Of a stretch of DNA of 64,000 nucleotides, positions 1 to 26,785 are shown piece by piece. How positions within the stretch are numbered: position 1 is the first letter of the stretch; every line of letters begins with the position of its first letter. This DNA is from an uncultured Chloroflexia bacterium. Lineage in GTDB: Bacteria; Chloroflexota; Dehalococcoidia; Dehalococcoidales; RBG-16-60-22. The stretch spans positions 407,723 to 471,722 of the forward strand of contig CAVSFE010000002.1 in assembly GCA_963727315.1 (NCBI GenBank), given 5' to 3'. A program made the translations under genes and the position numbers. Below the pieces are notes generated by a model. The model saw nothing but the letters and a program-made list of their open reading frames with translations, was not told the origin of the DNA and did no database searches.

Positions 1-1
1 G

Positions 2-322
2 GCCGTCACCGGATGGCAGAGAACGCTCCAAGAAATCCTAGAGTGCGGCGAGCGCATCGAGGTGATGCGGCACGTTTTCAATCTCCGCGAGGGAGACAAT
101 CCCATCAACCGCAAGGTACACGGGAGGATAATCGGCCAGCCGCCGCAAAAAGAAGGACCGCTGGCGGGAGTCACCGCCGACCTGGACGCCCAGGTCTACT
201 GGAATCTCGGGGCGATGGACTGGGACAGGGTGACGGCCAGGCCCAGCCGGGAAAAACTCGCAGAACTAGGGCTGGACGACGTAGCACAGGAGCTCTGGCC
301 GCCAACAGCCAAAGGGAGTTAA
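2..322 (+). CDS. aldehyde:ferredoxin oxidoreductase (AOR) family protein, C-terminal end; the 5' part lies outside the window
   Basis: Frame 2 is open from the window edge. The translation ...TGWQRTLQEILECGERIEVMRHVFNLREGDNPINRK... resembles the conserved C-terminal region of tungsten AOR-family enzymes. The stop lies 2 nt before the next gene. Confidence 0.55.
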   Translation, partial: AVTGWQRTLQEILECGERIEVMRHVFNLREGDNPINRKVHGRIIGQPPQKEGPLAGVTADLDAQVYWNLGAMDWDRVTARPSREKLAELGLDDVAQELWPPTAKGS

Positions 323-324
323 TT

Positions 325-1023
325 ATGAGCCAGAAAAATCAAATTATCGCTAACGCTATAAGCCAAGGCAGGACTCTCCTCACGGAAATCGAAGCCAAGC
401 AGGTCTTCAAAGAGGCCGGCGTGCCGGTGGTCGAAACAAGACTGGCGACGAGCCAGAAACAGGCCGGGGAAATCGGCGCCAGCATTGGCTTTCCTATTGT
501 ACTGAAGATAGCCTCACCGGACATCGTCCACAAAAGTGACGCCGGTGGGGTGAAGGTGGGGCTGAAAAATAAAAGCGAAGTGGAAAAAGCCTACAGCGAA
601 ATTATGAAAGCGGCGAAAGAGAAATTCCCTAAAGCGAAAATCGAGGGAGCGGCGGTACAGAAAATGGCGCGACCGGGGATAGAGATAATCGTCGGCACGT
701 TCAAGGATAAACAGTTCGGGCCGGTCATCATGTTCGGGCTGGGGGGGATATTCGTGGAGGTGCTCAAGGACGTATCTTTCCGCATCGTACCGATAGAGCG
801 TCGAGACGCCTCAGAGATGATTAAAGAAATCAAGGCGTATAGCCTGCTGAAGGGCTACCGGGGGACAGAGCCGGCCCACCTGCCCTCGCTGGAAAGTATT
901 TTAATGAAAGTTTCCGATTTCGTAGAGCAGACGCCGGAAATAAAGGAAATAGACCTGAACCCGGTGATAGCATATAAAGATTCGGCGATAGCGGTAGATG
1001 CCAGGATAGTGCTGGAGGGATAA
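325..1023 (+). CDS. ADP-forming acetate--CoA ligase beta-like subunit (ATP-grasp domain protein)
   Basis: The ATG at 325 gives MSQKNQIIANAISQGRTLLTEIEAKQVFKEAGVPVVET...IVLKIASPDIVHKSDAGGVKVGL, which is typical of ACD beta/ATP-grasp_5 proteins. The upstream 104 codons of the 336-aa track ORF are Arg/Pro-rich and overlap the AOR frame, so I exclude them. Confidence 0.75.
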   Translation: MSQKNQIIANAISQGRTLLTEIEAKQVFKEAGVPVVETRLATSQKQAGEIGASIGFPIVLKIASPDIVHKSDAGGVKVGLKNKSEVEKAYSEIMKAAKEKFPKAKIEGAAVQKMARPGIEIIVGTFKDKQFGPVIMFGLGGIFVEVLKDVSFRIVPIERRDASEMIKEIKAYSLLKGYRGTEPAHLPSLESILMKVSDFVEQTPEIKEIDLNPVIAYKDSAIAVDARIVLEG

Positions 1024-1040
1024 CCTCACCCCCTTAATCT

Positions 1041-1095
1041 CCCTCTCCGCTGGCGGAGAGGGGAAGAACTTTGAGAGGGGGCGAAGCCCCCTCTC
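1041..1095. terminator. two adjacent GC-rich hairpins between convergent genes (putative bidirectional terminator)
   Basis: CCCTCTCC-GCTGGC-GGAGAGGG at 1041-1063 and a perfect GAGAGGGGGC-GAA-GCCCCCTCTC at 1073-1095. They lie between the + gene ending at 1023 and the - gene ending at 1128. Confidence 0.5.
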
Positions 1096-1127
1096 GCTGC
1101 GCACTCCCTATTTCTTAAGGGTTCGGA

Positions 1128-1646
1128 TTATCCTCTGCTTTTCAAGTATGCAATTTCTTTGGGTTTATAGCCAAGTTTTAGTAAGATTTCCTCGGTGTGC
1201 TGGCCCAACAAAGGCGAAGGGCCCTGAGGCCTGCCCGGGGTCTTCTTGAGCTTGACAGGTAGGCCGAGCATTTTTATCTCGCCGCGGGTGGGGTGGTCAA
1301 CGGCAAAGATAATGTCGTTGGCGGCAAGCTGGGGATGGGCAATAACCTCATCGTAGGTAAGGCAGGGGTCGCAGCGCATCTTAGCATCGCGGAAAAGCTG
1401 CGCCCACTCGGCGCGGGTCTTCTGGCTAAAAGCCTCGTCCAAAAGCCGACCGATTTCTTCGCGGTGCTCGCGCCGGGCATCGTCGGTAGCGAAGCGGGGG
1501 TCGTCGGCCAAATTTTCCACCCCTACTATCTTACAAAAATCAGGCCACATGGGACCGGTGCCGAAGATGGTCAGGACATCCCCGTCCCTGGCGCGGAAAG
1601 GCCCGAAAGGCGGCGGCTGATAGCTCCGGCCCTCTTTATAGGGCAT
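1128..1646 (-). CDS. family III CoA-transferase (CaiB/BaiF), C-terminal fragment; same gene as 1571..2332, broken by a frameshift near 1647
   Basis: ...DDPRFATDDARREHREEIGRLLDEAF...PLLGQHTEEIL is a typical family-III C-terminus. Adding one G between GCAGG and ATGCCC joins ...FAEYLMPVAG to MPYKEGRSY. Confidence 0.8.
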   Translation of the reverse strand: MPYKEGRSYQPPPFGPFRARDGDVLTIFGTGPMWPDFCKIVGVENLADDPRFATDDARREHREEIGRLLDEAFSQKTRAEWAQLFRDAKMRCDPCLTYDEVIAHPQLAANDIIFAVDHPTRGEIKMLGLPVKLKKTPGRPQGPSPLLGQHTEEILLKLGYKPKEIAYLKSRG

Positions 1647-2332
1647 CCTGCCACCGGCATGAGATACTCGGCGAAACCGGAGAACTGCAGATAAAGCGCC
1701 GCATCCAGGTTATTCACCGTCAAAGCCTGTCCCAGGCCATGGCGCTCCCGTACGAAAAGGGCCGTCATCACGGCATAAGCCACCAGCATCCCGCCGACAT
1801 GGTCGCAGGCGGGGAAAGGAAGCATCTGAGGGACGCCACCGGGGTAGCCCATAACGCTCACGATACCGGACATCGCCTGACTCCACATATCGCCGCCGGC
1901 GCGATGAGCGACGGGACCGGTCTCTCCATAGCCATAGAAAGAGCAATAAATCACCTTCGGGTTGATTTTCGAGATTGCTTCATAGCCAATACCTAATCTC
2001 TCCGCCACGCCGGGCCGAAAGCTCTGCAAAACGACGTCGGCGTCTTTAGCCAATTTAAGGACGATTTCCAGACCCTCCGGCGACCGGATATCGATAGCGA
2101 GGTCTTTCTTGCCGCGATTAAAAGCCATCCAGTCGGCTTTGTCCGCAGCACCAGTGGTATCCGTATCCAGCACGTCATCCATGCCGGCGGGGAGCCCAAG
2201 GCGCGTGGCCTCGCCCTGTACTCTCTCCACTTTAATGACCTCGGCGCCCATATCCGCCAGCATGGCGCCGCCGAACGGGGCGGCGACGGCGATACTGAAA
2301 TCAAGGACTTTAATGCCTTCCAGAGGATACAT
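1571..2332 (-). CDS. family III CoA-transferase, N-terminal fragment (frameshifted; the last ~25 codons are out of frame)
   Basis: MYPLEGIKVLDFSIAVAAPFGGAMLADMGAEVIKVE is the canonical family-III N-terminal motif. Confidence 0.8.
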   Translation of the reverse strand: MYPLEGIKVLDFSIAVAAPFGGAMLADMGAEVIKVERVQGEATRLGLPAGMDDVLDTDTTGAADKADWMAFNRGKKDLAIDIRSPEGLEIVLKLAKDADVVLQSFRPGVAERLGIGYEAISKINPKVIYCSFYGYGETGPVAHRAGGDMWSQAMSGIVSVMGYPGGVPQMLPFPACDHVGGMLVAYAVMTALFVRERHGLGQALTVNNLDAALYLQFSGFAEYLMPVAGCPIKRAGAISRRLSGLSAPGTGMS

Positions 2333-2348
2333 ATTTTACCTCCGCCAG

Positions 2349-3257
2349 CTATTTATCAAGCTGCTCGTAAAGCTTATTGCGGGCGCGAACGGCCTTCTTG
2401 ACACCCATGTCCCGCCGCGCCTTGAAGAAATTGAACTCGTCGTCCTCGAAGTGGATATTCGTGCCCATGGTGTGCATCATAAAATGATTGGTCAGGCCGC
2501 TCGTGATACCCATAATATCGTAGATGACCTGTTTAGAAGCCTTGCCCATCGCAATGCCATCGAAGGGGAACTTCGCAAAACCCTCCGCGTACCGATTGAC
2601 CTCCTCTTCCAGCTTGTCGGCGGGGACGGCGCGGTTAATGAGGCCGATACGGGCGGCCTCCTTGCCGTCCAGCATCCGACCGGTCAGACAGAGGTCGAGG
2701 GCATTGGTCAGGCCGCAGCGCAGAATCATTATCGGGGTGATGGTAAGATTGGGCATGCCCAACCGCACCTCGACTTCCCCGAACTGGCAGTCCTCGGCCC
2801 CGACAATGAAGTCGCACAGCAGATACATGTCCATGGACGCGCCGAGCAGGTAGCCATGCGCCTGGACGATAGTCAGCTTGGGGAAAAAGAGGAGCTTCTG
2901 GGCGCACTCGTAAAAAAGCTTCCGGTCGAACTTGAGGCGGTGGCGGATAGGGGTGCGGGGGGCTTTTTCACCGGGCTTCGGCTCCTTCCAGCCGTAGACG
3001 AAGCCAACCTCATGTAAAGGGGCACCGGCGGCCAGAGCACGGCCGGCGCCTTTAATTATAAGCACCTTGAGGTCGTCGGCCTCCTCGACGACGGCCAGAG
3101 CTTTCCAGAAGTCCTTGACGCCGGTGTTCATGGTATCAGGGTCGTTCAGCGTAATGCGGGCGACATAGCCGCTCCTCTCGTAGATAACGTCTTTAAAATC
3201 CCCGGCTTTTTTAAACTTAAGCATAGAACCTACCCTCTCCTTGAGATTGTGACTCAC
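2349..3257 (-). CDS. enoyl-CoA hydratase/isomerase (crotonase) family protein
   Basis: VARITLNDPDTMN...LIIKGAGRALAAGAPLHEV is a crotonase-fold signature. An alternative start at 3224 (MLKFKK) is possible. Confidence 0.8.
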   Translation of the reverse strand: MSHNLKERVGSMLKFKKAGDFKDVIYERSGYVARITLNDPDTMNTGVKDFWKALAVVEEADDLKVLIIKGAGRALAAGAPLHEVGFVYGWKEPKPGEKAPRTPIRHRLKFDRKLFYECAQKLLFFPKLTIVQAHGYLLGASMDMYLLCDFIVGAEDCQFGEVEVRLGMPNLTITPIMILRCGLTNALDLCLTGRMLDGKEAARIGLINRAVPADKLEEEVNRYAEGFAKFPFDGIAMGKASKQVIYDIMGITSGLTNHFMMHTMGTNIHFEDDEFNFFKARRDMGVKKAVRARNKLYEQLDK

Positions 3258-3310
3258 CCTCCTTTATCCCCTTCCCTGCGGAAGGGGGGGGGAGGATATC
3301 AATTATATAT

Positions 3311-4534
3311 TTATTCAAAGACCCCTTCCTGTACCAGTTTTACGAATTCATCATCGGACATGCCGAGCATTTCCGTACAAATTTGCTCGGTGTGCTCTCC
3401 AAGCAGCGGGCTCGGCGAATAGGCTTTAGCGGGCGTTTCAGAGAGCTGGAAGCTCTGCCCCAGATGGGTGAAATCGCCCATTTCGGCGTGGGACATCGGC
3501 CAGAAGATATTGCGACGGGCGAGCTGGGGGTCGTTAAAGACATCGGCGGTATTGGACACCACGCCCGCCGGCACGCCTGCCTTTTGTAAACGCGACATGA
3601 CTTCTTCCGGCGAATAACCGATCGTCCACTCACTGACTAATTCGTTTAACGCGTCCTCGTTTTTCTTACGGTTTTCAACGGTGGCGAACCGGGGGTCGTT
3701 AGCTAACGCCGGCCGGCCGATTTCCCGGCAAAAGCTCCGCCATTCTTCATCGGTGGTCACGGCGATAGCGCACCAGCGGTCGTCGCCCTTACAGGGATAA
3801 ACGCCGTGCGGGGCGGCATGCGGGGAGGAGTTACCGATTCTCTCCGGCTCTTTACCGGTGCTTTCGTATTCCAGCAGGCCGGGAAGGATAAATGATATCG
3901 CCGCCTCGAACTGGGAGATGTCCAAAAGCTGCCCTTCCCCCGTCTTGTTCCGGTGGTCGAGGGCGGCGATTAAAGCGGCGGCAGCAAAGCGCGGGGCGAT
4001 GCAGTCCGTATAGGCGGAGACGCCGACGGGCAGGGGTTCTTTGCCGGGCCAGCCGATAAAGTTGGGCAGACCGACGATGGGCACCAGCACCATCCCGAAA
4101 GCCGGCAGGTTCTTATAAGGCCCCCAGGAGCCGTAACCGCTCTGCCGCAGCATGATGATATCCGGCTTAATCTTTTTCAGGCTATCGTAATCAAGTCCCC
4201 ACTTTTCGATAACGCCGGGGGTATAATTTTCGAAAAAGACATCGGACCAGGCGACCAGCCTGCGGACAATCTCCCGAGAGCGGGGGTGGTTCATATTCAG
4301 GGCAAAGCTCAGGATATTGGCGTTATAGTAGGTGAAATAGCCGCACCGGTTCAAGCCCGGCTTATTGTCCTTATAGGGGGCGGACGAGCGCATCGTGCAG
4401 GGACGATGGCTGGTCTCGATACGAATAACCGTGGCACCGTGGTCGGCGAAAAACTTCGTGGTGAGGGGGCCAACGACAGCCCAGGCGAAAGCCAGTATTT
4501 TGAGTCCGCTGAAGACGCCTTCACGTTTTTGCAT
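3311..4534 (-). CDS. family III CoA-transferase (CaiB/BaiF), intact
   Basis: FSGLKILAFAWAVVGPLTTKFFADHGATVIRIE at the N-terminus, DPRFATVENR and PLLGEHTEQI at the C-terminus, 407 aa. Confidence 0.85.
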   Translation of the reverse strand: MQKREGVFSGLKILAFAWAVVGPLTTKFFADHGATVIRIETSHRPCTMRSSAPYKDNKPGLNRCGYFTYYNANILSFALNMNHPRSREIVRRLVAWSDVFFENYTPGVIEKWGLDYDSLKKIKPDIIMLRQSGYGSWGPYKNLPAFGMVLVPIVGLPNFIGWPGKEPLPVGVSAYTDCIAPRFAAAALIAALDHRNKTGEGQLLDISQFEAAISFILPGLLEYESTGKEPERIGNSSPHAAPHGVYPCKGDDRWCAIAVTTDEEWRSFCREIGRPALANDPRFATVENRKKNEDALNELVSEWTIGYSPEEVMSRLQKAGVPAGVVSNTADVFNDPQLARRNIFWPMSHAEMGDFTHLGQSFQLSETPAKAYSPSPLLGEHTEQICTEMLGMSDDEFVKLVQEGVFE

Positions 4535-4536
4535 GG

Positions 4537-4926
4537 CTATATTATCCCGTCTTTTTTCAACGCCCGCAGGTCTTTTTTTGTAAGTCCTATCTCTTTATAG
4601 ACCTCAGCGTTGTGCTCACCGATTAACGGAGCGCGGCAGTGCGTGGAGAAATCCATTAATGATGAACGGATGTATTCTCTCGGGTAGGTAATGCTCGCGC
4701 CCAGCTCCGGGTGCTCAATTTGCGCCCAGTAACCGCGGACATGAAGGCACTCATCGTCGAGGAGGTCCTGCATGCGGGAAAGGGGGCCGATAGAGACACC
4801 GCGCGGCACGGCGCCTTGAAGCAGCTCCTGGCGCGTGTGGCGCAGGAAGAACTCCCCCACCGGACCGGATATTTTATCCACCACTTCCTGATCGACCGTG
4901 AACATATCAAAGCCGTCCCAGTCCAT
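4537..4926 (-). CDS. family III CoA-transferase, C-terminal fragment; same gene as 4907..5770, with a frameshift near 4951
   Basis: ...APLIGEHNAEVYKEIGL at the C-terminus. Removing one A in GAGAAGAAG-A-CTGGCT gives the continuous ...WMDEKKLATDFLLDMDWDGF... Confidence 0.8.
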   Translation of the reverse strand: MDWDGFDMFTVDQEVVDKISGPVGEFFLRHTRQELLQGAVPRGVSIGPLSRMQDLLDDECLHVRGYWAQIEHPELGASITYPREYIRSSLMDFSTHCRAPLIGEHNAEVYKEIGLTKKDLRALKKDGII

Positions 4927-5770
4927 GTCCAGAAGGAAATCGGTAGCCAGTCTTCTTCTCGTCCATCCAGGCCACCAGAGAGCTTAAAGTCTTGGCGCCG
5001 GTGCGGCCGCCGATGATATTGAAAAACACATAGCCGTCCTTACAGCGCCACACCTGCCGCTGCGCCACCTGGGTGCTCATGCCGGCGCGGAAAGCCCCGG
5101 CTCGCTTTAAAATCGTCCCGTCAAGCTCGTAGGTAGGCACGGCATTGGCCTGAAACCAGGCGGCGGACTGCTGCATCGAGACATCGACGCGCTGGCCCTG
5201 CCCGGTCTGCTCTCGATGATAATAGGCCACCATACAGCCCACGGCAGCATCAGCGCCGGCGTGCAGGTAGGCCTGGGGGACACTAATACGGACGGGGGGG
5301 CCATCGGCCTCGCCGGTCTGATAGAGAGTGCCGCTCATGCCCATGACAACGATATCCGAGCCCTTATAGTCGCGGTAGGGCCCTCCAAGGCCGAAGGGCG
5401 TAATAGAAGCCCAGATGAGCTTTTTGTATATTTTTTGGAAGTGCGAATAACCCATATCAAGTTTATCCAGATAGTCGGGGGGAAAGGACTCAAGAACGAA
5501 GTCGGCGGTAGAGACCAGTTTTTTGAAAAGCCCTCGTCCTTCGGGTTTTTCGATATCGAGGGTAATGCCTTTTTTATTAGAGTTATAGGCGAACCAGTAA
5601 ATATTTTCCTCGGGGTCGGGGGCACCGCTCCAGAACGGGCCAATAGAGCGAGAGGGGTCGCCGCCGGGCTTTTCGATTTTAATAACCTTAACACCGAGGT
5701 CGGCCAGGATTTTCCCGCAGAGAAACCCCTTGGCGTCGGTAAGGTCTAAAGCTCGCAGGTGATTAAGCAT
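4907..5770 (-). CDS. family III CoA-transferase, N-terminal fragment (frameshifted)
   Basis: MLNHLRALDLTDAKGFLCGKILADLGVKVIKIEKPGGDP is a family-III N-terminal motif. Confidence 0.8.
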   Translation of the reverse strand: MLNHLRALDLTDAKGFLCGKILADLGVKVIKIEKPGGDPSRSIGPFWSGAPDPEENIYWFAYNSNKKGITLDIEKPEGRGLFKKLVSTADFVLESFPPDYLDKLDMGYSHFQKIYKKLIWASITPFGLGGPYRDYKGSDIVVMGMSGTLYQTGEADGPPVRISVPQAYLHAGADAAVGCMVAYYHREQTGQGQRVDVSMQQSAAWFQANAVPTYELDGTILKRAGAFRAGMSTQVAQRQVWRCKDGYVFFNIIGGRTGAKTLSSLVAWMDEKKTGYRFPSGHGLGRL

Positions 5771-5781
5771 AATTTCCCTTA

Positions 5782-7131
5782 CTATATTTGTTTCAGGTAT
5801 TTCCTGGCAAGAGCTAGAGCTTTTTCCGGCTCGACCTGGGCAAGGAGTCCCACCGCATACAGAACATACTGCGTATCTAAATAAAAGCGGGGGGAGCGGG
5901 GCTTCAAAATAAAGGGATTTTCTTCGTTAAAAAGGACGCCTTCCAGGACCTGCCGCGGGCTATCCGAAAAAATAATCGGCCCGCCCGTGCCGATAACGCT
6001 CCTGACGCCGGTCAGGTCCTTGCCGTGCTGGATAAGCCGCTCGCCGGCGGGGCTATAGATAACTTCGAGCCGGCCGGCATGGCGGTCCATGGCGACCTCC
6101 ACCATGAGACGGGATAAAATCCGTTGGCAGGCGAAGTCGGTTTTACGGCGTGGCAAATTGCCCTCGCGGAAACGTTGAACTATGGCGGTAAAACCCGATG
6201 GCGTTTCCCGAGCTTGAACGAGCTCCAAAAGCCTGTCCAGGTTATACTTCAGACCGAGGTCGCCCTCAACGGTCCTTTTCTCGTAAGGCTCGGGGAGGCC
6301 GACCATGAGAATATCGGGCCGGGCGGGGGCGCCTTTAGCGATGGAATGAACGTCCGTGGTCGCCCCGCCGGGGTCGACAACGATAAGCTCCCCGAAATCA
6401 CAGGCGATGAGACTGGCCGCTTCCAAAACGGCGGCAGGAGTGGGCATAATAACGTCCTTGATAATCGCCCTGGCTTTAGCGATGCCTTTAGCCTCGATGA
6501 TGTTCTTCATAAAGAGGGCGCGGATTTCTCTATTGCAGGGGGCGACATCCAGCACGCCTATCTCCGGCATGACATTTCCGGTATAGATAACGTTTTTACG
6601 ACTATCTTTAAAGATAGTTTTTATATCGTCGTGCGCCGTTTTATTACCGGCAATAATGATATTTTTTATGGCCGGGCCGGTGCGGGAAAACAGGCGTGAG
6701 TTATGAATAATGACCTGTTCATCGCCGCCGTCCGTGCCGCCGGAGAGGAGGAGGATATCAGGGGCAAGCGACTCGATTTCTTTGACTTCCGCTTCGTTAA
6801 GCTTATAAGAATAGCTCCCCACGACCTTAGCGCCCGCCCCCAGCGCGGCGAGACTGGCGGCCTTGCTGGTAAGCTCCGGCACAAAGCCGGCGCAGACCAT
6901 GCGCAGTCCGCCGGCGGCGCTCGAACAGGCGAGGGCTTCCCTCTTTTCGAGGTCGGTGATAGGGGTTTTCGCGGAAATCTGCCTTAAAGCTTCCTCAAGT
7001 CCTACAGTGATATCGGTGTCCACGGTGGAGGGTAAACGGGCGGCGGCGACCACCTCAATGCGGGCGAGGTCGACGGCGACGACCTTGGTGAAGGTGGAAC
7101 CGAAGTCGATGAAAAGACGGATGTTGTCCAT
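5782..7131 (-). CDS. glmL: glutamate mutase accessory protein GlmL/MutL-like (ASKHA-fold putative reactivase)
   Basis: MDNIRLFIDFGSTFTKVVAVDL...ACSSAAGGLRM...LLSGGTDGGD is the typical GlmL pattern. It lies directly downstream of the S and E subunits. Confidence 0.75.
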   Translation of the reverse strand: MDNIRLFIDFGSTFTKVVAVDLARIEVVAAARLPSTVDTDITVGLEEALRQISAKTPITDLEKREALACSSAAGGLRMVCAGFVPELTSKAASLAALGAGAKVVGSYSYKLNEAEVKEIESLAPDILLLSGGTDGGDEQVIIHNSRLFSRTGPAIKNIIIAGNKTAHDDIKTIFKDSRKNVIYTGNVMPEIGVLDVAPCNREIRALFMKNIIEAKGIAKARAIIKDVIMPTPAAVLEAASLIACDFGELIVVDPGGATTDVHSIAKGAPARPDILMVGLPEPYEKRTVEGDLGLKYNLDRLLELVQARETPSGFTAIVQRFREGNLPRRKTDFACQRILSRLMVEVAMDRHAGRLEVIYSPAGERLIQHGKDLTGVRSVIGTGGPIIFSDSPRQVLEGVLFNEENPFILKPRSPRFYLDTQYVLYAVGLLAQVEPEKALALARKYLKQI

Positions 7132-7188
7132 AACTCAAAACTCAAAAGTTAAAAGTCAAAACCATAATCTAAAAGTTAAAACTTAATG

Positions 7189-7614
7189 TTACATCTTGCC
7201 TCTGGCCTGCAGGTCTTTTTTAAGGTCTGAGATGCCGACGTCGGTATCAGTCTCCGGCGGATAGACCCTATCGAAGCCCAGGGCTTTGAATTTCCTTTCA
7301 ACCTCCTGAGGGTCGGAGCGGCCGATAACCAGGTTCCCGCCGATGTACAAAAGCACATCGCCGAGTCCGGCTTCAAGCCGCTTCTCGTTAAAGTCCTTAA
7401 GGTCTAGCTCAGCCATGCCATAAAGAGAGCTCATCAGAATGGCATCGGCGCGGGTCTCCTGGGCGACGCTGATAAACTCCTCCGGCGACACCTGCATGCC
7501 CAGCTCAACGACCTTAAAGCCGGCGTCCCGCAGGGCGCGGGAGAGGACTTTGGTGCCGATGACGTGGGCGTCCATCCCAACCGTGCCGGTGATGACTGTC
7601 GGTGTTCTTTTCAT
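7189..7614 (-). CDS. glmS: methylaspartate(glutamate)-mutase S-subunit-like B12-binding protein
   Basis: 141 aa. The DxHxxG cobalamin-binding motif is present as GMDAHVIG. The Rossmann-like B12-binding domain pattern ...ILMSSLYG... is also present. Confidence 0.85.
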   Translation of the reverse strand: MKRTPTVITGTVGMDAHVIGTKVLSRALRDAGFKVVELGMQVSPEEFISVAQETRADAILMSSLYGMAELDLKDFNEKRLEAGLGDVLLYIGGNLVIGRSDPQEVERKFKALGFDRVYPPETDTDVGISDLKKDLQARGKM

Positions 7615-7638
7615 CGCGATGCTCCCATATTATGTCAA

Positions 7639-9099
7639 TTACTGATCAAACGGCGGGAGGCCGACGATTTTTCCCCGGCTGAGGCCCCAGAGGTCTTTAA
7701 CGGCGGTATGGTAGTCCGCCTTTTTGCCTTCCAGCTTCTCCCGCTCGGCGATTTTCTGGCGGTGGAAGTCCTTGATTTCTTCAGGGATGGGGAGACTGCC
7801 AAACTCAAGGTAGCGGCAGGCGCCGCGGGCATCCCTAACGCCCAGGACTTTATCCTTAACGTTGATGTTGGGGCTCCACGGGGAATCCAGCACGCCGGAA
7901 TCGACCGCCTTGATGGTGCCGTCGACGATATCGCCATCGCCGAGGTCTAAAATCCTGTCCAGGATGGCCCTGACCTCAGTCTCGGTCACCTTCTCCTCGA
8001 TATCAATATCTTTAATCTCGAAGCCGATTTTTTGCTCGCGGACGACATCGAAAATCCACTTGGCGGCGCGGTAGCTCACCTTATGCGTCTCCGTGGTGGG
8101 AACGCCGGCCCCCTCGTCAATGCTGCGGAGGTCGACGGCGTTAGCCCCGGCCAGCGCGCCGACCATCGAGACATAACTCAGATAGGCGAAAGCGCCGCCC
8201 ATATCCATGGCGACGGGGAAAAGGGGCGTCTGGGCGGGACACGCCCCGACAATCTGACAATCTTTATAGCCGAACTTATCCAGATACTCACGGATGATGC
8301 GCGGGGCAAAGCGAATCCAGGCCATGTCCTGCGCCATGTTGCCCATGCAGTGCACCAGAGGGTATAAAGCCTTCTGGCCCTGAGCCGCGGCGGTAAGCGC
8401 CTCAATGACGAGGGTAACGATATTAACGCTCAGGGGAAAAGGGGCGCTGGGAAGCCAGCCGTGGAGGTCGGTGCAGAGGATAACGCCCCTGTCAGCGTAC
8501 CAACCGACGGTGCCGCTGGTCTCCTGCCACTTCTCCACGAGCTCGCGTATGGTCATTTTCTTGGAATAACTGCCCCAGGTGACGAAGGGCAGGCAGCCTT
8601 CGAAGGTGGTCATGCCGGCGGCGATAGCAATGTCACCGCCGGCGCCGCGGGGACTGAAAGCGGCGTCCACGCTTTCGATGAGCTGGCGGGTCTGCTTCAC
8701 GCCGTGATTAATAATGGGAAAGCCGTTAAGCAGAGGCCGGCCGGTACGGTTGCTCTCCTTCAAAGCCGCCTCGACCTTCTCATACTGACCGAGCCGGGTA
8801 TAACTATCGGTGGTAACGGGAATCAGGACGACGCCAGATTCGCGAAGTCCCTGGCAGAGTTCAATCATTTTTTCCAGGATGGGGGTGCCGGCGCGGGGAA
8901 AAACGCTCATGCGGCCTTCCTCGCTGAGCTTTACCATCACCTTCCACCAGATTTTCGAGTCGGGCAGGCTTTTCTGGTAAGCCACCGCCTCATCGAAGTC
9001 CACCTCTTTGCCGGTGGGCCATTTATCCAGCTCCTCGCGCCGCTTTTTCATCAATAAATCGTCGTCGATGCGCTTGTTCATCATCCTGAGTTTCTTCAT
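7639..9099 (-). CDS. glmE: glutamate mutase epsilon (E) subunit-like protein
   Basis: From the ATG at 9099: MKKLRMMNKRIDDDLLMKKRREELDKWPTGKEVDFDEAV...FPRAG...DSYTR...LLNGFP..., collinear with clostridial GlmE as I remember it. The start sits 5 nt after the upstream stop. The longer track ORF (to 9189) overlaps the SDR. Confidence 0.8.
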   Translation of the reverse strand: MKKLRMMNKRIDDDLLMKKRREELDKWPTGKEVDFDEAVAYQKSLPDSKIWWKVMVKLSEEGRMSVFPRAGTPILEKMIELCQGLRESGVVLIPVTTDSYTRLGQYEKVEAALKESNRTGRPLLNGFPIINHGVKQTRQLIESVDAAFSPRGAGGDIAIAAGMTTFEGCLPFVTWGSYSKKMTIRELVEKWQETSGTVGWYADRGVILCTDLHGWLPSAPFPLSVNIVTLVIEALTAAAQGQKALYPLVHCMGNMAQDMAWIRFAPRIIREYLDKFGYKDCQIVGACPAQTPLFPVAMDMGGAFAYLSYVSMVGALAGANAVDLRSIDEGAGVPTTETHKVSYRAAKWIFDVVREQKIGFEIKDIDIEEKVTETEVRAILDRILDLGDGDIVDGTIKAVDSGVLDSPWSPNINVKDKVLGVRDARGACRYLEFGSLPIPEEIKDFHRQKIAEREKLEGKKADYHTAVKDLWGLSRGKIVGLPPFDQ

Positions 9100-9103
9100 C
9101 ACT

Positions 9104-9973
9104 TTACTCCTGCGGGGCGGATAAAAAAGTGGCAGCTTGAGATAAAATCGGCTGGCCGCCGGCGACGTAAATGACCTGCCCGGTAACATAGTCGGACATA
9201 CTCGAGGCTAAAAATAAAGCCGGCCCGGCGATATCATCCGGTTTTCCCATCCGCCCCAGCGGCACCTCTTTCTTGCAAAGCGCCGCGAAAAAGGCGTCCC
9301 GCTCCGGTCCCGGCGGCTGCAACGAATCCCAGAACGGCGTCTCGATAGGGCCCGGCACGATGGCATTCACGTAGATATTAAACGGCGCCAATTCGAAAGC
9401 CAGGTTCGTGGTCAGGCCTAGGACGCCGGCCTTGGCGGAATGATAGTGAAGCACGGAAACGGCCGGATGCACGGCGCCCATCGAAGAAAGGTTAATGATT
9501 TTCCCGTACCGTTGTTTTTTCATATGGGGAATAGCGGCAATACAACAGAGGAACGGGCCCTTCAAATTTACATCCAGTATTCGGTCCCAGTCCGCCTCGG
9601 TGGCGGTGGCGCTATCGCCGCCCTTGACGCCGACGCCCCCGGCGTTATTCACCAGGATATCGATTTTCCCGAACTTCTTGATGGTCCGGGACACCATGGC
9701 GTTGACCTCGGCTCTCTTAGAGATATCGGCTTTAATCGCCAGGGACTTACGACCCAGAGCTTTAATTTCGTCGGCTACCTTTTCAGCGCCCTCGATATGC
9801 AGGGCATTCACGACAACGTCGCAGCCTTCCGCGGCGAACTTCAAAGCGATAGCACGCCCCATGCCCTTGGCGCCCCCGGTAACGATAGCCACCCTGTTTT
9901 CCAGCAACACTTCCGGCCTCCTTGAGTCGATCCTTAATTTATGATGATTAACAGTTATGCCCTCAATTGACAT
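9104..9973 (-). CDS. SDR family oxidoreductase
   Basis: TGGAKGMGRA (TGxxxGxG), NNAG and YHSAK (YxxxK) are present. Confidence 0.85.
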   Translation of the reverse strand: MSIEGITVNHHKLRIDSRRPEVLLENRVAIVTGGAKGMGRAIALKFAAEGCDVVVNALHIEGAEKVADEIKALGRKSLAIKADISKRAEVNAMVSRTIKKFGKIDILVNNAGGVGVKGGDSATATEADWDRILDVNLKGPFLCCIAAIPHMKKQRYGKIINLSSMGAVHPAVSVLHYHSAKAGVLGLTTNLAFELAPFNIYVNAIVPGPIETPFWDSLQPPGPERDAFFAALCKKEVPLGRMGKPDDIAGPALFLASSMSDYVTGQVIYVAGGQPILSQAATFLSAPQE

Positions 9974-10081
9974 GCCAACGTACTATACTAGCACTATTTC
10001 GGATAAAAAATAAATAGTATAATAGTTATATTATCTAAGTATGATACCATATATTAAGGCTGAAATGGAGAGGAGCAGCAA

Positions 10082-10864
10082 ATGGCGAAAAAATTTGAAG
10101 GCAGGGTAGCGCTGGTCACAGGCGGGGCCTCGGGGATAGGTAAAGTAACGGCCCAGTTTTTCGGGCGGGAAGGGGCCAAAGTAATCGTCGCCACCGACGC
10201 CAACATCAAAGGCGGCGAGGAGACGGTGGGCCTCATAAAGAAAGCCGGCGGGGAAGCCGCTTTTGTAAAATGCGATGTCAGAAAAGCGGAAGATGTCGAA
10301 GTGATGGTAGACACCTGTATTAAAAAGTACGGGCGGCTGGACTATGCCTTCAACAACGCCGGTATCGGGCCCGACGGCCGGCGCGTGCCCGTCGTCAATA
10401 TCGTCGACTGCCCGGAAGAAATCTGGGACCGCACCGTAGACACCAATCTCAAAGGCGTTTTCCTCTGCATGAAATACGAAATGAAGCAGATGCTCATGCA
10501 AAAATACGGCGTCATCGTCAACACGGCATCGGTGGCCGGGCTGAAAGCGCTCACGGGCTTCTGCGCCTACGTCGCCAGTAAAAGCGGCATTATCGCGCTG
10601 ACCAGAGTGGCGGCCCTCGAAGGCGCCGAGGCCGGCATCCGAGTGAACACGATACTACCGGGTCCCACAGAAAGGACGCTTCTGTTCGAATACCTGACAG
10701 AGGCAGAGCCTGGCGAAAAGGAGCGCATGATGGACATGATTCCCATGAAGCGGGTGGCCACGCCGGAAGATATGGCTGAAGCGGTCATGTGGCTGTGCTC
10801 GGATGCGGCATCGTTTATCACCGGGCACGCGATGCCCATCGACGGGGGCATGACCTCGCGATGA
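10082..10864 (+). CDS. SDR family oxidoreductase
   Basis: TGGASGIGK, NNAG and YVASK are present. It is divergent from the previous SDR across an AT-rich 108-bp spacer. Confidence 0.85.
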   Translation: MAKKFEGRVALVTGGASGIGKVTAQFFGREGAKVIVATDANIKGGEETVGLIKKAGGEAAFVKCDVRKAEDVEVMVDTCIKKYGRLDYAFNNAGIGPDGRRVPVVNIVDCPEEIWDRTVDTNLKGVFLCMKYEMKQMLMQKYGVIVNTASVAGLKALTGFCAYVASKSGIIALTRVAALEGAEAGIRVNTILPGPTERTLLFEYLTEAEPGEKERMMDMIPMKRVATPEDMAEAVMWLCSDAASFITGHAMPIDGGMTSR

Positions 10865-10887
10865 AATCGAGATAAAGGCTGATAGTA

Positions 10888-11403
10888 ATGGCAGCGAAGA
10901 AAAAAACCACCATAAAATTATTACAAAAACCTTCGCCGGGGGAAATCAAAGCCGCCCTCAATAAAATCAAAGAGACGGACTTCTGGCTGTGCGTGCAGTT
11001 TGCCGACACGCTCATCAGATACCTGGAAATCACCATGAAACAGGACAGCATCGTCAGCCGTCTGCAGGGCTCGGCCCTCTACTTTTTGCTCCTCAACGGC
11101 GGCGAGTCGACGCCCACACAGCTCGCCAACACGATGCTGCGCTCCAAGCACAGCGTCACCAAGATCATCGACGGCCTAGAGAAAGAGGGGCTGGTCGTCA
11201 GGGACTTCACGAACAAGGACCGGAGGAAAACGTCCGTCAGGCTGACGTCGGCCGGGCTGGAGCACCTCAGACAGAGGTTCGCGCGGGGCAACCAGCGCGC
11301 CAGGAAGGTCATGGACAGCCTCGACGATAAAGAGCAAAAGAGGCTCGTCGAACTCACGGAAAGAATGCGCCAAAAGATGACCGCGATACTGCAACACCTT
11401 TAG
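10888..11403 (+). CDS. MarR family transcriptional regulator
   Basis: ...PTQLANTMLRSKHSVTKIIDGLEKEGLVVRDFTNKDRRKTSVRLTSAGLE... is the MarR winged-helix pattern. Confidence 0.8.
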   Translation: MAAKKKTTIKLLQKPSPGEIKAALNKIKETDFWLCVQFADTLIRYLEITMKQDSIVSRLQGSALYFLLLNGGESTPTQLANTMLRSKHSVTKIIDGLEKEGLVVRDFTNKDRRKTSVRLTSAGLEHLRQRFARGNQRARKVMDSLDDKEQKRLVELTERMRQKMTAILQHL

Positions 11404-11447
11404 CTTGACGGCCAACGCGAAAAAGGCGATAATGAGGAACGGCGCAC

Positions 11448-11524
11448 GGCGCATTCGTCTAGCGGCCTAGGACGCGTCCCTCTCAAGGACGAGATCACGG
11501 GTTCGAATCCCGTATGCGCTACCA
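11448..11524 (+). tRNA. tRNA-Glu (anticodon CUC), CCA encoded
   Basis: Manual cloverleaf: acceptor GGCGCAT/ATGCGCT, D arm GTCT..AGGAC, anticodon stem CGTCC/GGACG with loop CT-CTC-AA, T arm ACGGG-TTCGAAT-CCCGT, discriminator A plus CCA. Confidence 0.9.
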
Positions 11525-11526
11525 AT
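11508..11526 (+). repeat. direct repeat copy 1 (attL-like core) TCCCGTATGCGCTACCAAT
   Basis: It covers the last 17 nt of tRNA-Glu plus 2 nt and is identical to 33985-34003. Confidence 0.85.
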
Positions 11527-11534
11527 GTAAAAAT

Positions 11535-11581
11535 AACCCCCTGTTTTGTAGCTGTTTCAGCCGGACAGGGGGTTTCTTTTT
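11535..11581 (+). terminator. rho-independent terminator after tRNA-Glu
   Basis: AACCCCCTGT - 20-nt loop - ACAGGGGGTT, followed by TCTTTTT. Confidence 0.6.
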
Positions 11582-11586
11582 AGTGT

Positions 11587-11607
11587 TTTGCTAACCATTT
11601 GCTAACC
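11587..11607 (+). repeat. two tandem TTTGCTAACC motifs with 11-nt period, at the island left arm
   Basis: TTTGCTAACC-A-TTTGCTAACC. A near-identical pair lies at 33846-33865 in the same orientation. Confidence 0.6.
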
Positions 11608-12383
11608 AACATATTCGATTGTTTGACTTAATTGCTTGATTAACGTTATTGCCTTTTGTAAATCAACGGTAGTAGACTTAAAGCCTGATTCCTGCCATTC
11701 GTTAGATGTAAAATTCTTTAAATCAGATAGTTTATCGCTAGGTACACCCGCATATTCAGGAGTAACTGTGTAGAAAAAAGACTAATAGATAATGTTTCCT
11801 CTAAATCAAGCAGGATTGATATTTAGTCAGGGCTTAATCTTGGATGAAAGGCATCAAAAAAAACTAAAATACCATTATGAGCATTGGTAATCTGCGTAGC
11901 GAGGGACTTCCATCCTTTAGTGTCTAGGTTTCGCACACGCTGGGGAATCATCGGAGAGATAACATTTTCAGATACGATAATCATCTCTTTATGAACATCA
12001 TTTAAATTCGCAGAATTGGATATACGTTCTTGGAGAACATTAAAACTTATACCCAGTCCATTCCGAATACTGGTTATTATAGAATTCAGTAATATCTCCA
12101 GACGATTTGAAATTCTATAATCAGTTGATTTCCATTTTTGCTCCTCATGCCACTTAAGAATCCAAGCGACATAGGAGACCGTAACAACTATACCTAATAT
12201 TTCGGTTGAAAGGTTTTACTTCTATCTTAATTCCGATAATACGAGTGAAATTTTAGGATGACTTAGAGAATAACCCAAACTGGAAATACTAGTTGTGGAA
12301 ATAAAGTGTTGGCATATAAACATCCAGAACCTGATAGAACGGTATGAACTTGAGAACTTCAATCCAGATGTTCAAATATATAA

Positions 12384-14024: not shown

Positions 14025-14192
14025 CTTCTTCGGGTTTAAACGGAGATGATTGACTGATTCTGGCTTATTTTATTCTCTTACCTTCCTCTATTCAAGCGTC
14101 TCTGGTAAAGAAAATAAAAAAGCGGGGAGCCCCGTATGGGACTCCCCGCGGTATGCTACGCCGTCTATGAGTAATAGCCTCGGGTTGCCTTT

Positions 14193-15053: not shown

Positions 15054-15103
15054 TTTTCCCTCCGTACCAGCCAGCTTTTTCAGGGCCTTAACACTTCCGG
15101 TCT

Positions 15104-16147: not shown

Positions 16148-16204
16148 TTTTCTCCTCTTAATTTTTTAAAGATTATCTTTGTCTTCAAATTCAACTTCTT
16201 GCCT

Positions 16205-16474: not shown

Positions 16475-16479
16475 CCGGT

Positions 16480-16503
16480 GTAATCAATCTGGAGATTGAT
16501 TAC
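16480..16503. promoter_or_regulatory. 24-bp near-perfect palindrome, candidate operator
   Basis: GTAATCAATCT-GG-AGATTGATTAC has 11-bp perfect arms. It sits 42-65 nt upstream of the probable start (16438) of the small gene and downstream of the LuxR-type regulator. Confidence 0.5.
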
Positions 16504-16615
16504 AGGATTGATTTTAGTCACGCCAGAGTAAAGCTGAGGGTTGTAAGTTGAAAATCACAGAACAGGCCTGAGTTATTAAAAAGAAAGATGAATTACTGTG
16601 GGGATAAGCGGGCAG

Positions 16616-21689: not shown

Positions 21690-21751
21690 CTCCCTGCTCC
21701 CTCTTATCATCCCTCATACCCCTTAAAATCAATCCCGGAAATCTATCCTAA

Positions 21752-26780: not shown

Positions 26781-26785
26781 AATAC

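Follow-up and report, generated by a model that had tools for sequence, protein, structure and literature searches.

The window examined here, a stretch of 64,000 nucleotides, carries between positions 1128 and 9973 a string of minus-strand genes in the order SDR1, GlmE-like (E), GlmS-like (S), GlmL-like (L), CT1, CT2, crotonase (ECHc) and CT3 (Table 1). The genes were called by Pfam and NCBIfam profile searches, and all those named in a first-pass annotation of the raw sequence were recovered in place and on that strand. The tight co-directional spacing described there corresponds to gaps of 2-86 nt (4 nt separate the end of SDR1 from the start of E), so that the string from SDR1 to CT3 can be regarded as one operon. 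The E-S-L order is likewise real and non-canonical, as had been remarked: clostridial glutamate mutase loci follow the order S-L-E, and the arrangement S-L-E-mal was confirmed in E. coli O157. The start of the E gene had been correctly placed at 9099, since all E homologues are 486 aa long, which rules out the longer ORF starting at 9189.

Table 1. Features at the mutase locus and its borders (positions in the window).
Feature	Position	Strand	Evidence and remarks
AFOR (aldehyde:ferredoxin oxidoreductase), 3' end, ~100 aa, cut by the window edge	2..304	+	tblastn with L001/L004 AFORs, 74-76% identity
ATP-grasp_5 protein, ADP-forming acyl-CoA synthetase beta part	301..1023	+	Pfam PF13549, 293 bits
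CT3, family-III CoA-transferase, SUGCT-like	1128..2332	-	Pfam; broken: ORFs 1571-2332 and 1128-1646
ECHc, crotonase-family enoyl-CoA hydratase/isomerase, 291 aa	2349..3224	-	Pfam ECH_1, 82 bits
CT2, family-III CoA-transferase, intact, without catalytic Asp	3311..4534	-	PDB 9fn0_B, 269 bits
CT1, family-III CoA-transferase	4537..5770	-	Pfam; broken: ORFs 4907-5770 and 4537-4926
L, GlmL/MutL-type accessory protein (reactivating chaperone)	5782..7131	-	Pfam MutL, 499 bits
S subunit, small cobalamin-binding protein	7189..7614	-	NCBIfam NF002612, 187 bits
E subunit, GlmE family, non-canonical clade, 486 aa	7639..9099	-	Pfam PF06368 (Met_asp_mut_E), 391 bits
SDR1, short-chain dehydrogenase	9104..9910	-	Pfam; ORF reaches 9973
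Divergent AT-rich promoter/operator region (putative)	9911..10081		Inverted repeats
SDR2, short-chain dehydrogenase	10082..10864	+	Pfam; synteny
MarR-family regulator	10888..11403	+	Pfam MarR_2

Conservation of the operon and its frame breaks

The E-S-L, CT1-CT2 and CT3 genes are invariant throughout the Dehalococcoidales loci (designated here by L numbers), and the whole operon is kept in roughly 40 genomes of this order; a literature search found no paper on it. SDR2 and the MarR gene, transcribed divergently from the operon, are members of the conserved unit. SDR2, matched best in the PDB by a generic SDR (7djs), is kept beside SDR1 in loci of the window type, and the MarR gene, present in 12 loci and 51% identical to its same-position counterpart in L001, likely regulates the divergent unit. 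Between both units lie inverted repeats (TACTATACTA / TAGTATAATA) that would mark the putative promoter/operator and are retained in part by the closest orthologous loci. On the opposite side, the ATP-grasp_5 gene is convergent with the operon and shares 69-80% identity with the same-position gene in L001, L004, L017 and L052, while in other loci the alpha subunit of the acyl-CoA synthetase (TIGR02717) adjoins the beta subunit. AFOR occurs in 27 related loci. In 23 related loci the operon also contains MmgE/PrpD-family genes, with none within the window itself; the Dehalococcoidales homologues are closest, if weakly (118 bits), to cis-aconitate decarboxylase and IDS epimerase, and the family includes a methylsuccinate isomerase (PMC12290011). 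SnoaL/cupin-like genes are also present among the operon neighbours.

Three family-III CoA-transferases, two of them frame-broken, had been reported, and this description holds: CT2 is intact and both Asp-bearing transferases, CT1 and CT3, are broken. Relative to intact orthologues, CT1 carries a +1 nt insertion at about 4940 (tblastn and DNA alignment) and CT3 a +2 nt insertion at about 1655. It could be argued that the operon is decaying and no longer works in this genome, CT1 and CT3 being pseudogenes, given that neither indel falls within a long homopolymer, that the orthologues of other genomes are intact and that the sole intact transferase, CT2, is devoid of the catalytic Asp. We consider decay unlikely, however, as at least two genes that have nothing to do with the operon are likewise broken within the 64 kb (an OYE-type reductase at 42576-44713 and an HdrA/GltD-like gene at 30247-32812), similar breaks are found in other long-read MAGs of the clade (E, for instance, is broken in L052), and the remaining operon genes are all intact, with 78-89% identity to their orthologues. 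The breaks in unrelated genes and in other MAGs are better explained by indels in the assembly than by decay of this one locus, and the problem is probably assembly-wide and not specific to the operon.

A separate clade of E subunits

The references for glutamate mutase were the Clostridium cochlearium enzyme (PDB 1CCW/1I9C/6H9E) and E. coli O157 ECs_0762-0764. Like GlmES and its GlmL/MutL protein, the window system has three components: E with a TIM-barrel fold, a small B12 subunit of the His-on type, and a chaperone of the L type. The DxHxxG motif previously noticed in S reads DAHVIG; this subunit passes the NF002612 cut-off (110 bits) and shares 44% identity with E. coli GlmS, and L passes that of NF040745 (523 against 475 bits). 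E matches PDB 6h9e_B along its full length (E=6e-88, about 35% identity), but its 347.6 bits for the TIGR01503 equivalog (NCBIfam) fall under the cut-off of 390.1. An HMM of canonical GlmE gives window E 308 bits, against about 600 for the held-out C. cochlearium and E. coli proteins, whereas the sister-clade HMM gives it 696 bits, against 450 and 399, respectively. The closest representatives of 50%-identity clusters share 49% identity with window E, and all others at most 39%. In a neighbour-joining tree, the Dehalococcoidales clade and the wider clade that adds Actinomycetota and Bacillota homologues both reach a bootstrap of 100%, the canonical glutamate mutases 92%, and the grouping of the window clade with the canonical one 0%. 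E is a member of a separate, uncharacterised clade of the GlmE family, outside the canonical glutamate mutases; in the nearest sister family, E and S are fused and a MutL-type gene adjoins them.

Across the E sequences of the clade, R66, T94, R100, N123, R149, Y181 and E330 are invariant with the single exception of the outlier L057, which has Asp at position 66. R66, R100, R149, Y181 and E330 are common to GlmES and window E, which keeps the three-arginine claw and Tyr181 that clamp two carboxylates, together with the glutamate responsible for holding the ribose of the adenosyl group; for this reason, a free C5-type dicarboxylate is the most likely substrate. The canonical pocket residues H150, Y177, N178, P180 and M294 are all changed in window E (among them H150G, Y177/N178 to T/W and P180S, alongside Q147S), and alignment to canonical GlmE shows that 6 aa are missing after residue 154. 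The equivalent of Glu171 sits in a loop that is variable among orthologues (Glu in 20 related loci, Gly in 11, Asn in 3 and Pro in the remainder), and it is Asn, Pro or Gly in L014, L017, L020 and L039 despite an SDR1/CT/ECH context like that of the window. On account of this variation and of the changed pocket residues, the enzyme seems not to be specific for amino acids, although the Glu at 171 and the full claw of the window's own E would still allow glutamate. Loop type and upstream redox gene vary together, Glu loops occurring with SDR1 and the crotonase and Gly-rich loops with enoate-reductase-like genes and PrpD, a link confounded by phylogeny because the loop groups are subclades.

The first-pass annotation had also found no methylaspartate ammonia-lyase (MAL) in the window, and a Pfam scan of all window ORFs of at least 280 aa agrees with it. 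Nor does any of the 59 related loci have MAL within 10 kb of its homologue, and tblastn with the E. coli O157 protein against the six frames of the window and these 59 loci returned nothing better than E=2.3. Unlike glutamate mutase loci, the window has neither a mal gene nor mesaconase and citramalate lyase nearby (PMC4682846), and neither the operon nor the window encodes an exit enzyme such as a lyase or thiolase. The suggestion that the mutase acts on a different (di)carboxylate is now favoured by the clade, the equivalog cut-off, the pocket residues and the variation at Glu171: there is no tight clustering with GlmE, the substrate residues are not all conserved and no MAL lies nearby. To judge from these comparisons, a role other than that of glutamate mutase is most likely for the operon's enzyme.

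Resemblance to the benzylsuccinate module

Assigned by best PDB match, and hence dependent on which structures have been solved (SmtAB, for example, has none), the CT1 orthologue pairs with chain A of BbsEF (9fn0_A, 199 bits), CT2 with chain B, the CT3 orthologue with succinate-hydroxymethylglutarate CoA-transferase (SUGCT; 9br6, 234 bits) and SDR1 with BbsD (7pcs_B, 213 bits), followed by a (3R)-hydroxyacyl-CoA dehydrogenase (194 bits). The catalytic Asp is conserved in the CT1 orthologue and present in CT3, which shares 77-89% identity with the intact 408-aa L001 orthologue; in CT2, alignment of the three transferases places Gly at this position, as in 9fn0 chain B, and CT2 is predicted to be the non-catalytic partner of CT1. 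In NCBIfam, the top match of all three is succinate-glutarate CoA-transferase, and all remain far under the cut-off of the succinyl-CoA:mesaconate transferase equivalog (best 196 of 700 bits). The TGxxxGxG and YxxxK motifs of SDR1 are intact. ECHc, 89% identical to its L001 orthologue, has Asp instead of the first catalytic Glu and retains the second; it reaches no NCBIfam equivalog cut-off, and its best PDB match, a 3-hydroxypropionyl-CoA dehydratase, scores just 86 bits.

Together, the CT pair, the crotonase and SDR1 resemble the benzylsuccinate beta-oxidation module of anaerobic toluene degraders (BbsEF/BbsH/BbsCD), which also joins an Asp-bearing and an Asp-less subunit in a heteromeric transferase and includes a crotonase, with protein identities that are moderate at most. 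The substrate class implied by this likeness would be a 2-substituted succinate (PMC10818641). The window differs in having no BbsG acyl-CoA dehydrogenase, BbsAB thiolase or benzylsuccinate synthase, and in its third, SUGCT-like transferase and embedded B12 mutase, the latter being absent from Bbs clusters.

Candidate substrates and pathway

The reading that we favour, with about an even chance of being right, is that the locus encodes an AdoCbl mutase, most likely not glutamate mutase, that would take a free C5 dicarboxylate as its substrate, with CoA-transferases on either side of it, and supply a hydratase/dehydrogenase module. The constant pairing with CoA-transferases, and never with an ammonia-lyase, makes it probable that a different five-carbon diacid is rearranged in an undescribed pathway. 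In the scheme we infer, from the substrate and direction to every catalytic step, E and S would form the carbon-skeleton mutase, with L as reactivase, and interconvert the linear (glutarate-type) and branched (3-methyl-succinate-type) skeletons of the dicarboxylate. The mutase would need free acids while the surrounding chemistry uses thioesters, which would explain why two CoA-transferases are always present: the BbsEF-like heteromer (CT1 catalytic, CT2 Asp-less) may serve the 2-substituted-succinate side and CT3 the glutarate-type side, with succinyl-CoA as the likely CoA donor. The branched acyl-CoA would then undergo hydration or dehydration by the crotonase and 3-hydroxyacyl-CoA oxidation by SDR1, a scheme in which an acyl-CoA dehydrogenase, encoded nowhere in the operon, would be unnecessary. 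For the window version, with its Glu loop, SDR and crotonase, 2-hydroxyglutarate might be interconverted with 3-methylmalate and lead to beta-methylmalyl-CoA and, reversibly, mesaconyl-CoA; this substrate pair is favoured, albeit unproven. Glutamate mutase itself reportedly converts 2-hydroxyglutarate slowly into 3-methylmalate (Roymoulik et al. 2000).

Two known systems come close to this scheme. In the methylaspartate cycle of Haloarcula and the clostridial methylaspartate pathway, a Glm-type mutase is also followed by a family-III transferase on C5 dicarboxylates, and mesaconyl-CoA or beta-methylmalyl-CoA are plausible intermediates here as there. The window differs in the absence of MAL, in the low mesaconate transferase scores, in that a window scan found no methylmalyl-CoA/citramalyl-CoA lyase, and in its hydratase, which is of crotonase and not of MaoC type (PMC5592240). 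The itaconate/methylsuccinate cluster of Pseudomonas and Cupriavidus (PMC12290011), dedicated to branched C5-dicarboxylate metabolism, combines a family-III transferase with MmgE/PrpD, as the related loci do; the window lacks its MaoC-type hydratase, acyl-CoA dehydrogenase and citramalyl-CoA lyase, and has a B12 mutase.

A genuine but divergent glutamate mutase, whose product CT1/CT2 would turn into 3-methylaspartyl-CoA for the crotonase to eliminate ammonia and yield mesaconyl-CoA, seems distinctly unlikely. Such a scheme, which would make the methylaspartate route CoA-dependent, corresponds to the first option of the first-pass annotation; a variant methylaspartate/mesaconate route is the less likely reading, in view of the transferase scores and the missing lyase. 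It would account for the absence of MAL, and is consistent with S and L passing glutamate-mutase cut-offs, with R66, R100, R149, Y181 and Glu at 171 in window E, and with family-III transferases accepting charged amines such as carnitine (CaiB). It is at odds with the position of E outside the canonical clade and under the equivalog cut-off, with the unconserved pocket residues, with the loss of Glu171 in loci of matching context, and with the lack of a glutamate transporter, aminotransferase or lyase in every related locus; moreover, we know of no crotonase-type beta-aminoacyl-CoA ammonia-lyase.

Less probable again is an exchange of 2-methyleneglutarate with 3-methylitaconate, after which CoA transfer would lead directly to the crotonase and BbsD-like SDR, the two acids, both alpha,beta-unsaturated from the start, being handled like phenylitaconyl-CoA in Bbs, or reduced by enoate reductases in other variants. 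The model is 2-methyleneglutarate mutase (Mgm) of Eubacterium barkeri, a B12 mutase on a free C5 dicarboxylate without amino group, in whose polypeptide the B12 domain follows the E-like part and which is accompanied by a MutL-type protein. This reported architecture would match the E-then-S order of the window and the E-S fusions, with adjoining MutL-type gene, of the sister family. Glu171 is dispensable within the clade, no variant has an acyl-CoA dehydrogenase, yet hydratase/SDR or enoate-reductase genes are there, and PrpD-family enzymes, acting via enolates, could shift double bonds. To our knowledge, however, 2-methyleneglutarate occurs solely in nicotinate fermentation, the genes of which are absent from the related loci. 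Least probable of all would be a glutarate/methylsuccinate pair linking glutaryl-CoA (CT3) with methylsuccinyl-CoA (CT1/CT2), aided where needed by a PrpD-family methylsuccinate epimerase. Migration of a carboxymethyl group without a radical-stabilising substituent is, as far as we know, unprecedented for this enzyme class, and the window type has a Glu loop without the reductase, or the acyl-CoA dehydrogenase that the oxidative direction would require. In favour of this pair stand the SUGCT-like CT3 and the succinate-glutarate top match of all the transferases, the acceptance of methylsuccinate by BbsEF, the existence of a PrpD-family methylsuccinate isomerase, and the Gly-rich loop variants, which adjoin enoate reductases that would yield saturated acids.

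Organization and conservation of the operon

Scans against Pfam and NCBIfam located on the minus strand the genes that the first-pass annotation had listed for this operon, including its two frame-broken CoA-transferases, CT1 and CT3. Intergenic gaps of 2-86 nt argue for a single operon of about 8.8 kb, and the length of 486 aa common to all homologues of the GlmE-like protein E supports its start at 9099.

Features of the operon and its flanks (window coordinates)
Feature	Position	Strand	Placement	Basis
AFOR (aldehyde:ferredoxin oxidoreductase), last 100 codons	2-304		flank opposite SDR2/MarR	
ADP-forming acyl-CoA synthetase, beta subunit	301-1023		flank opposite SDR2/MarR	
CT3, third CoA-transferase, two pieces	1571-2332 + 1128-1646	-	operon	Pfam/NCBIfam scan
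ECH, crotonase	2349-3224	-	operon	Pfam/NCBIfam scan
CT2, family-III CoA-transferase, intact	3311-4534	-	operon	Pfam/NCBIfam scan
CT1, family-III CoA-transferase, two pieces	4907-5770 + 4537-4926	-	operon	Pfam/NCBIfam scan
L, MutL/GlmL protein	5782-7131	-	operon	Pfam/NCBIfam scan
S, small B12-binding protein, motif DAHVIG	7189-7614	-	operon	Pfam/NCBIfam scan
E, Met_asp_mut_E	7639-9099	-	operon	Pfam/NCBIfam scan
SDR1, short-chain dehydrogenase	9104-9910	-	operon	Pfam/NCBIfam scan
SDR2, short-chain dehydrogenase	10082-10864		divergent to operon	
MarR gene	10888-11403		divergent to operon	

The spacer between the divergent units (9911-10081, 171 bp) is AT-rich and contains inverted repeats. Short conserved AT-rich motifs occur in the SDR2/SDR1 spacers of the window and of related loci L001-L039, with TAGTATATAATAGCACGAAAGGG found in one subgroup of loci and ATAGTTAGATAATATA...ATAGTGCTAGTATA in the subgroup containing the window; both are candidates for promoter elements or for operator sites of MarR. 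Scans for sigma-70 promoters and terminators gave no excess over the shuffled expectation. The G+C content is 55-57% over the operon (window 1-10000) versus 43-51% in the following 14 kb (10000-24000), a stretch that carries genes for a peptide-binding protein, DUF3224/chagasin-like proteins and regulators.

More than 100 relatives of E (90%-identity clusters, 74-92% identity) were collected, and every one of them derives from a Dehalococcoidales or Chloroflexota metagenome. Screening of species-representative genomes yielded 53 loci, and the operon is conserved in roughly 40 species-level Dehalococcoidales genomes. ORFs were called and clustered and the gene order was mapped in all loci, with the result that E-S-L, CT1-CT2 and CT3 are invariant across those of Dehalococcoidales. 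Loci of the window type carry MarR, in some cases SnoaL, and SDR2 on one strand, and SDR1-E-S-L-CT1-CT2-ECH-(PrpD)-CT3 on the opposite strand. A second operon type has an OYE-type Fe-S flavoenzyme and small cupin/NTF2-like proteins in the place of SDR1, together with two MmgE/PrpD genes, while a third has an upstream flavoprotein resembling fumarate reductase or vinylphenol reductase with an Fe-S/GltD-like partner. AFOR genes are present in 27 of the related loci and PrpD-family genes in 23. NCBIfam provides no specific name for the PrpD-like, family-I CoA-transferase or small flanking proteins of these loci, and a literature search on Dehalococcoidia/Chloroflexi mutase or benzylsuccinate topics found no paper on the operon. 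More distant E homologues (50-54% identical; 37% in L057) occur in Actinomycetota/Thermoleophilia MAGs (L044, L046-L051, L057), where the neighbours are SDR1-like, AFOR, PrpD-family, IclR and oxoprolinase/caprolactamase-like genes and a Liv-type ABC transporter; no S, L or CoA-transferase gene lies within 10 kb of E in these MAGs.

The orthologues of CT1 and CT3 elsewhere are single ORFs of 408-418 aa, relative to which the window sequence has an insertion of +1 nt near 4940 in CT1 and one of +2 nt near 1655 in CT3. Other genes of the window are split as well, namely an OYE/Fe-S flavoenzyme gene (42576-44713, minus strand), 79-81% identical to the operon-adjacent one in L052 and broken near 43070, and an HdrA/GltD-like pyridine-nucleotide-disulfide oxidoreductase gene (30247-32812, minus strand), broken near 31450; MalT-like fragments are found at 19864-21689. 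E itself is broken in L052, a MAG of this clade assembled from long reads. Given at least two unrelated split genes in the window and the broken E of L052, the breaks in CT1 and CT3 are probably indel errors of an assembly-wide kind, and the idea that they are a feature specific to this locus was discarded. If they were real, the window operon would be left without any Asp-bearing transferase. The MalT-like fragments belong to a region (16616-21689) in which an 876-aa MalT/LuxR-type regulator precedes what appear to be pieces of another, a 358-aa ORF without Pfam match and a 169-aa ORF that retains nothing but the final TPR_MalT segment and GerE.

Relationship of E to glutamate mutase

E matches PF06368 with 391 bits (cut-off 26.6) and aligns with 6h9e_B over residues 2-482 (E=6e-88), that is, with homology along the full length of the TIM barrel. 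On the glutamate mutase equivalog TIGR01503 it scores 347.6 bits, under the cut-off of 390.1. As in the glutamate mutase system, a B12-binding subunit with a His-on DxHxxG motif (here DAHVIG) and a GlmL-type accessory protein are present, and both pass their equivalogs (S, NF002612, 187 bits versus a cut-off of 110; L, NF040745, 523 versus 475). The gene order E-S-L departs from the glmS-glmL-glmE-mal order of the canonical E. coli O157:H7 cluster, in which methylaspartate ammonia-lyase (MAL) adjoins the mutase. With the MAL of that cluster as query, a six-frame tblastn found no MAL in the window or in the 59 related loci (best E=2.3), nor did Pfam detect MAL, HpcH/CitE-lyase, thiolase or acyl-CoA-dehydrogenase domains in ORFs of at least 280 aa across the whole 64 kb. 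The early suspicion that the lyase is absent from the window is thus borne out by both searches. Canonical Glm genes are associated with MAL, mesaconase and citramalate lyase (PMC4682846).

Window E is about 35% identical to C. cochlearium GlmE and 32% identical to that of E. coli. When E was searched against 1.84 billion sequences, each representing one 50%-identity cluster, the nearest (P0121 and P0122) were only 49% identical and every other one reached at most 39%. Neighbour-joining trees with 100 bootstraps recovered a Dehalococcoidales clade (100%), a canonical glutamate mutase clade (92%) and a wider clade that unites the Dehalococcoidales sequences with those of Actinomycetota, Desulfotomaculum and clostridial E-S fusions (100%). 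The grouping of window and canonical clade received 0%, so that the phylogeny called for by the first-pass annotation places E outside the canonical GlmE clade, with no tight clustering with bona fide enzymes. Profile scores point the same way: an HMM of the canonical clade gives window E 308 bits versus about 600 for the held-out C. cochlearium and E. coli enzymes, less than it gives some families entirely devoid of the carboxylate-binding arginines R66, R100 and R149 (glutamate mutase numbering; the arginine claw). With an HMM of the sister lineages, none of whose sequences is closer than 58%, the scores are 696 bits for window E and 450 and 399 bits for the two true enzymes. Judged by its sequence, window E does not belong to the canonical glutamate mutases.

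The active site was compared in an alignment of 118 full-length PF06368 family members. The canonical signature (R66, R100, R149, H150, E171, Y177, N178, P180, Y181, M294) is found in C. cochlearium GlmE and 26 representatives. The window clade is characterised instead by S147, P148, G150, T/W at 177-178, S180, an altered position 294 and a 6-residue deletion; in window E itself the pocket changes are H150G, Y177T, N178W, P180S and the replacement of M294, with Glu kept at 171. R66, R100, R149 and Y181 are retained in window E and in 121 Dehalococcoidales sequences, and R66, T94, R100, N123, R149, Y181 and E330 are invariant in the wider clade, the sole exception being the 37%-identical L057 homologue with Asp at 66. 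The roles of the claw arginines and Y181 were reportedly defined by Reitzer et al. in 1999. The invariance of the seven residues implies that the clade is still able to bind two carboxylates as well as the adenosyl ribose.

Glu171 is said to be the partner of the substrate amino group in glutamate mutase, a role attributed to work by Madhavapeddi and Marsh in 2001. Its equivalent lies within a hypervariable loop (residues 168-181). A loop Glu occurs in 20 loci, with SDR1 as the upstream gene in all 19 where this gene is identifiable and with a crotonase downstream where the contig is long enough. A Gly-rich loop occurs in nine Dehalococcoidales loci, together with enoate-reductase-type genes and PrpD; Asn is found in three loci, Pro with an inserted Met-Glu in two SDR1-type loci, Gly in one SDR1-type locus, and Pro in the Actinomycetota and clostridial relatives. 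Since orthologues that share the operon context of the window can have N, P or G here, the clade does not conserve Glu as a catalytic residue, and Glu171 was rejected as proof of amino-acid specificity. From these sequence patterns, the loop resembles a specificity determinant whose type changes together with the adjacent redox enzyme, an association that phylogeny confounds.

Companion enzymes and a putative C5-dicarboxylate pathway

The closest solved structures to CT1 and CT2 are the two chains of benzylsuccinate CoA-transferase, 9fn0_A (199 bits) and 9fn0_B (269 bits), respectively. At the catalytic Asp position, CT1 and chain A have Asp, and CT2 and chain B have Gly. As in BbsEF of benzylsuccinate beta-oxidation (Bbs), the two paralogous subunits are encoded side by side and only one of them has the catalytic Asp, and this correspondence indicates that CT1/CT2 is very probably a BbsEF-like heteromer of one catalytic and one structural subunit, with CoA-transfer activity as a prediction. 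Among solved structures, SDR1 comes closest to BbsD (213 bits), with a (3R)-hydroxyacyl-CoA dehydrogenase in second place, and CT3 to succinate-hydroxymethylglutarate CoA-transferase. The crotonase has Asp and Glu at its catalytic acid positions and no close characterised relative among NCBIfam and PDB matches. For the PrpD-family genes of related loci, the nearest matches are cis-aconitate decarboxylase and IDS epimerase, and in itaconate clusters one MmgE/PrpD-family member is an (S)-(R)-methylsuccinate isomerase (PMC12290011). Taken together, the relatives of the CoA-transferases, SDR1 and PrpD point to a predicted branched C5-dicarboxylate chemistry.

The resemblance to known routes is partial. 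Besides BbsEF, BbsH and BbsCD, the Bbs pathway requires the acyl-CoA dehydrogenase BbsG and the thiolase BbsAB (PMC10818641). A domain of either kind is absent from the operon, from the rest of the window and from those related loci that were annotated. In comparison with the methylaspartate cycle, the hydratase is of the ECH_1 type in Pfam and not MaoC-type, as had been noticed from the sequence, the window ORFs contain no HpcH/CitE-type lyase, and the best score on NF041294, the equivalog of succinyl-CoA:mesaconate CoA-transferase (Mct), is 195.7 versus a cut-off of 700.

In the mechanism we propose, the Glm-type AdoCbl mutase would act on a C5 dicarboxylate in its free form and interconvert the glutarate-type and 3-methyl-succinate-type skeletons. 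CT3 would shuttle CoA on the linear side and CT1/CT2 on the branched side, with succinyl-CoA as the probable CoA donor, and the crotonase and SDR1 would then process the branched acyl-CoA. Because no operon variant has an acyl-CoA dehydrogenase, the intermediate should already bear a hydroxyl or a double bond. The sequence favoured for the window type would be 2-hydroxyglutarate to 3-methylmalate and back, a reaction known as a slow side-reaction of glutamate mutase, followed by conversion to beta-methylmalyl-CoA and its interconversion with mesaconyl-CoA.

This scheme has to be weighed against a true glutamate mutase coupled to CoA-dependent deamination, with which the retained claw, the Glu at 171 and the equivalog matches of S and L are compatible, and against which stand the phylogenetic position of E, its altered pocket and the variation of the loop among orthologues. 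Glutamate mutase and 2-methyleneglutarate mutase are, to our knowledge, the only Glm-type B12 mutase reactions described, and a reaction resembling the latter is another alternative. Interconversion of glutarate and methylsuccinate is a third one and would suit the Gly-loop variants better. On balance, we put at about an even chance the reading that E is a dedicated, undescribed AdoCbl dicarboxylate mutase (possibly for 2-hydroxyglutarate/3-methylmalate, or glutarate/methylsuccinate in Gly-loop variants) at the core of a new CoA-transferase-bracketed pathway between linear and branched C5 dicarboxylates in uncultured Dehalococcoidales, and one of many clades with other substrates mis-annotated as 'methylaspartate mutase'. 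The clade and the operon context are new for a known enzyme type, and a new substrate is predicted. If true, B12 enzymology would gain a further radical rearrangement through this third specificity, and abundant uncultured Chloroflexota of subsurface and peat a route for C5-dicarboxylate carbon; as intact orthologues exist, the hypothesis is open to direct test by expression.

The wider superfamily and other genes of the window

The PF06368 'methylaspartate mutase E' superfamily comprises 763 50%-identity clusters. About a quarter of the aligned full-length representatives have the canonical glutamate-mutase pocket, and many are without one or more claw arginines. Databases annotate all named superfamily members as 'methylaspartate mutase epsilon subunit', and the source names of ten representative clusters all read 'methylaspartate mutase'. 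Since the label covers members in which the claw or pocket is missing, these genes are no safe basis for assigning glutamate fermentation or a methylaspartate cycle in metabolic reconstructions.

Among the sister families of E, the closest consists of fused E-S proteins of about 640 aa in which Pro takes the Glu171 position; it is found in Sporobacter termitidis and other Clostridia (related loci L005:3471-13481 and L006:3656-14198). Its conserved gene string includes a glycyl-radical enzyme with its activase, a MutL gene and two alcohol dehydrogenases of the Fe type, and represents another uncharacterised B12 mutase context. It was rejected as a guide to the substrate of E, given that its setting, with the glycyl-radical enzyme and the two alcohol dehydrogenases, differs.

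Elsewhere in the window, the minus strand at 24409-33435 encodes methylene-THF reductase (MTHFR, MetF), a C-terminal-domain partner, two MvhD/FlpD-like proteins, HdrA-like flavoproteins and a poly-ferredoxin, a set suggestive of a Wood-Ljungdahl-type module for electron-bifurcating methylene-THF reduction. At 47464-50757, also on the minus strand, two ATP-grasp genes resembling D-Ala-D-Ala ligase come after a radical SAM gene that resembles lysine-2,3-aminomutase, possibly a module for beta-amino-acid ligation.
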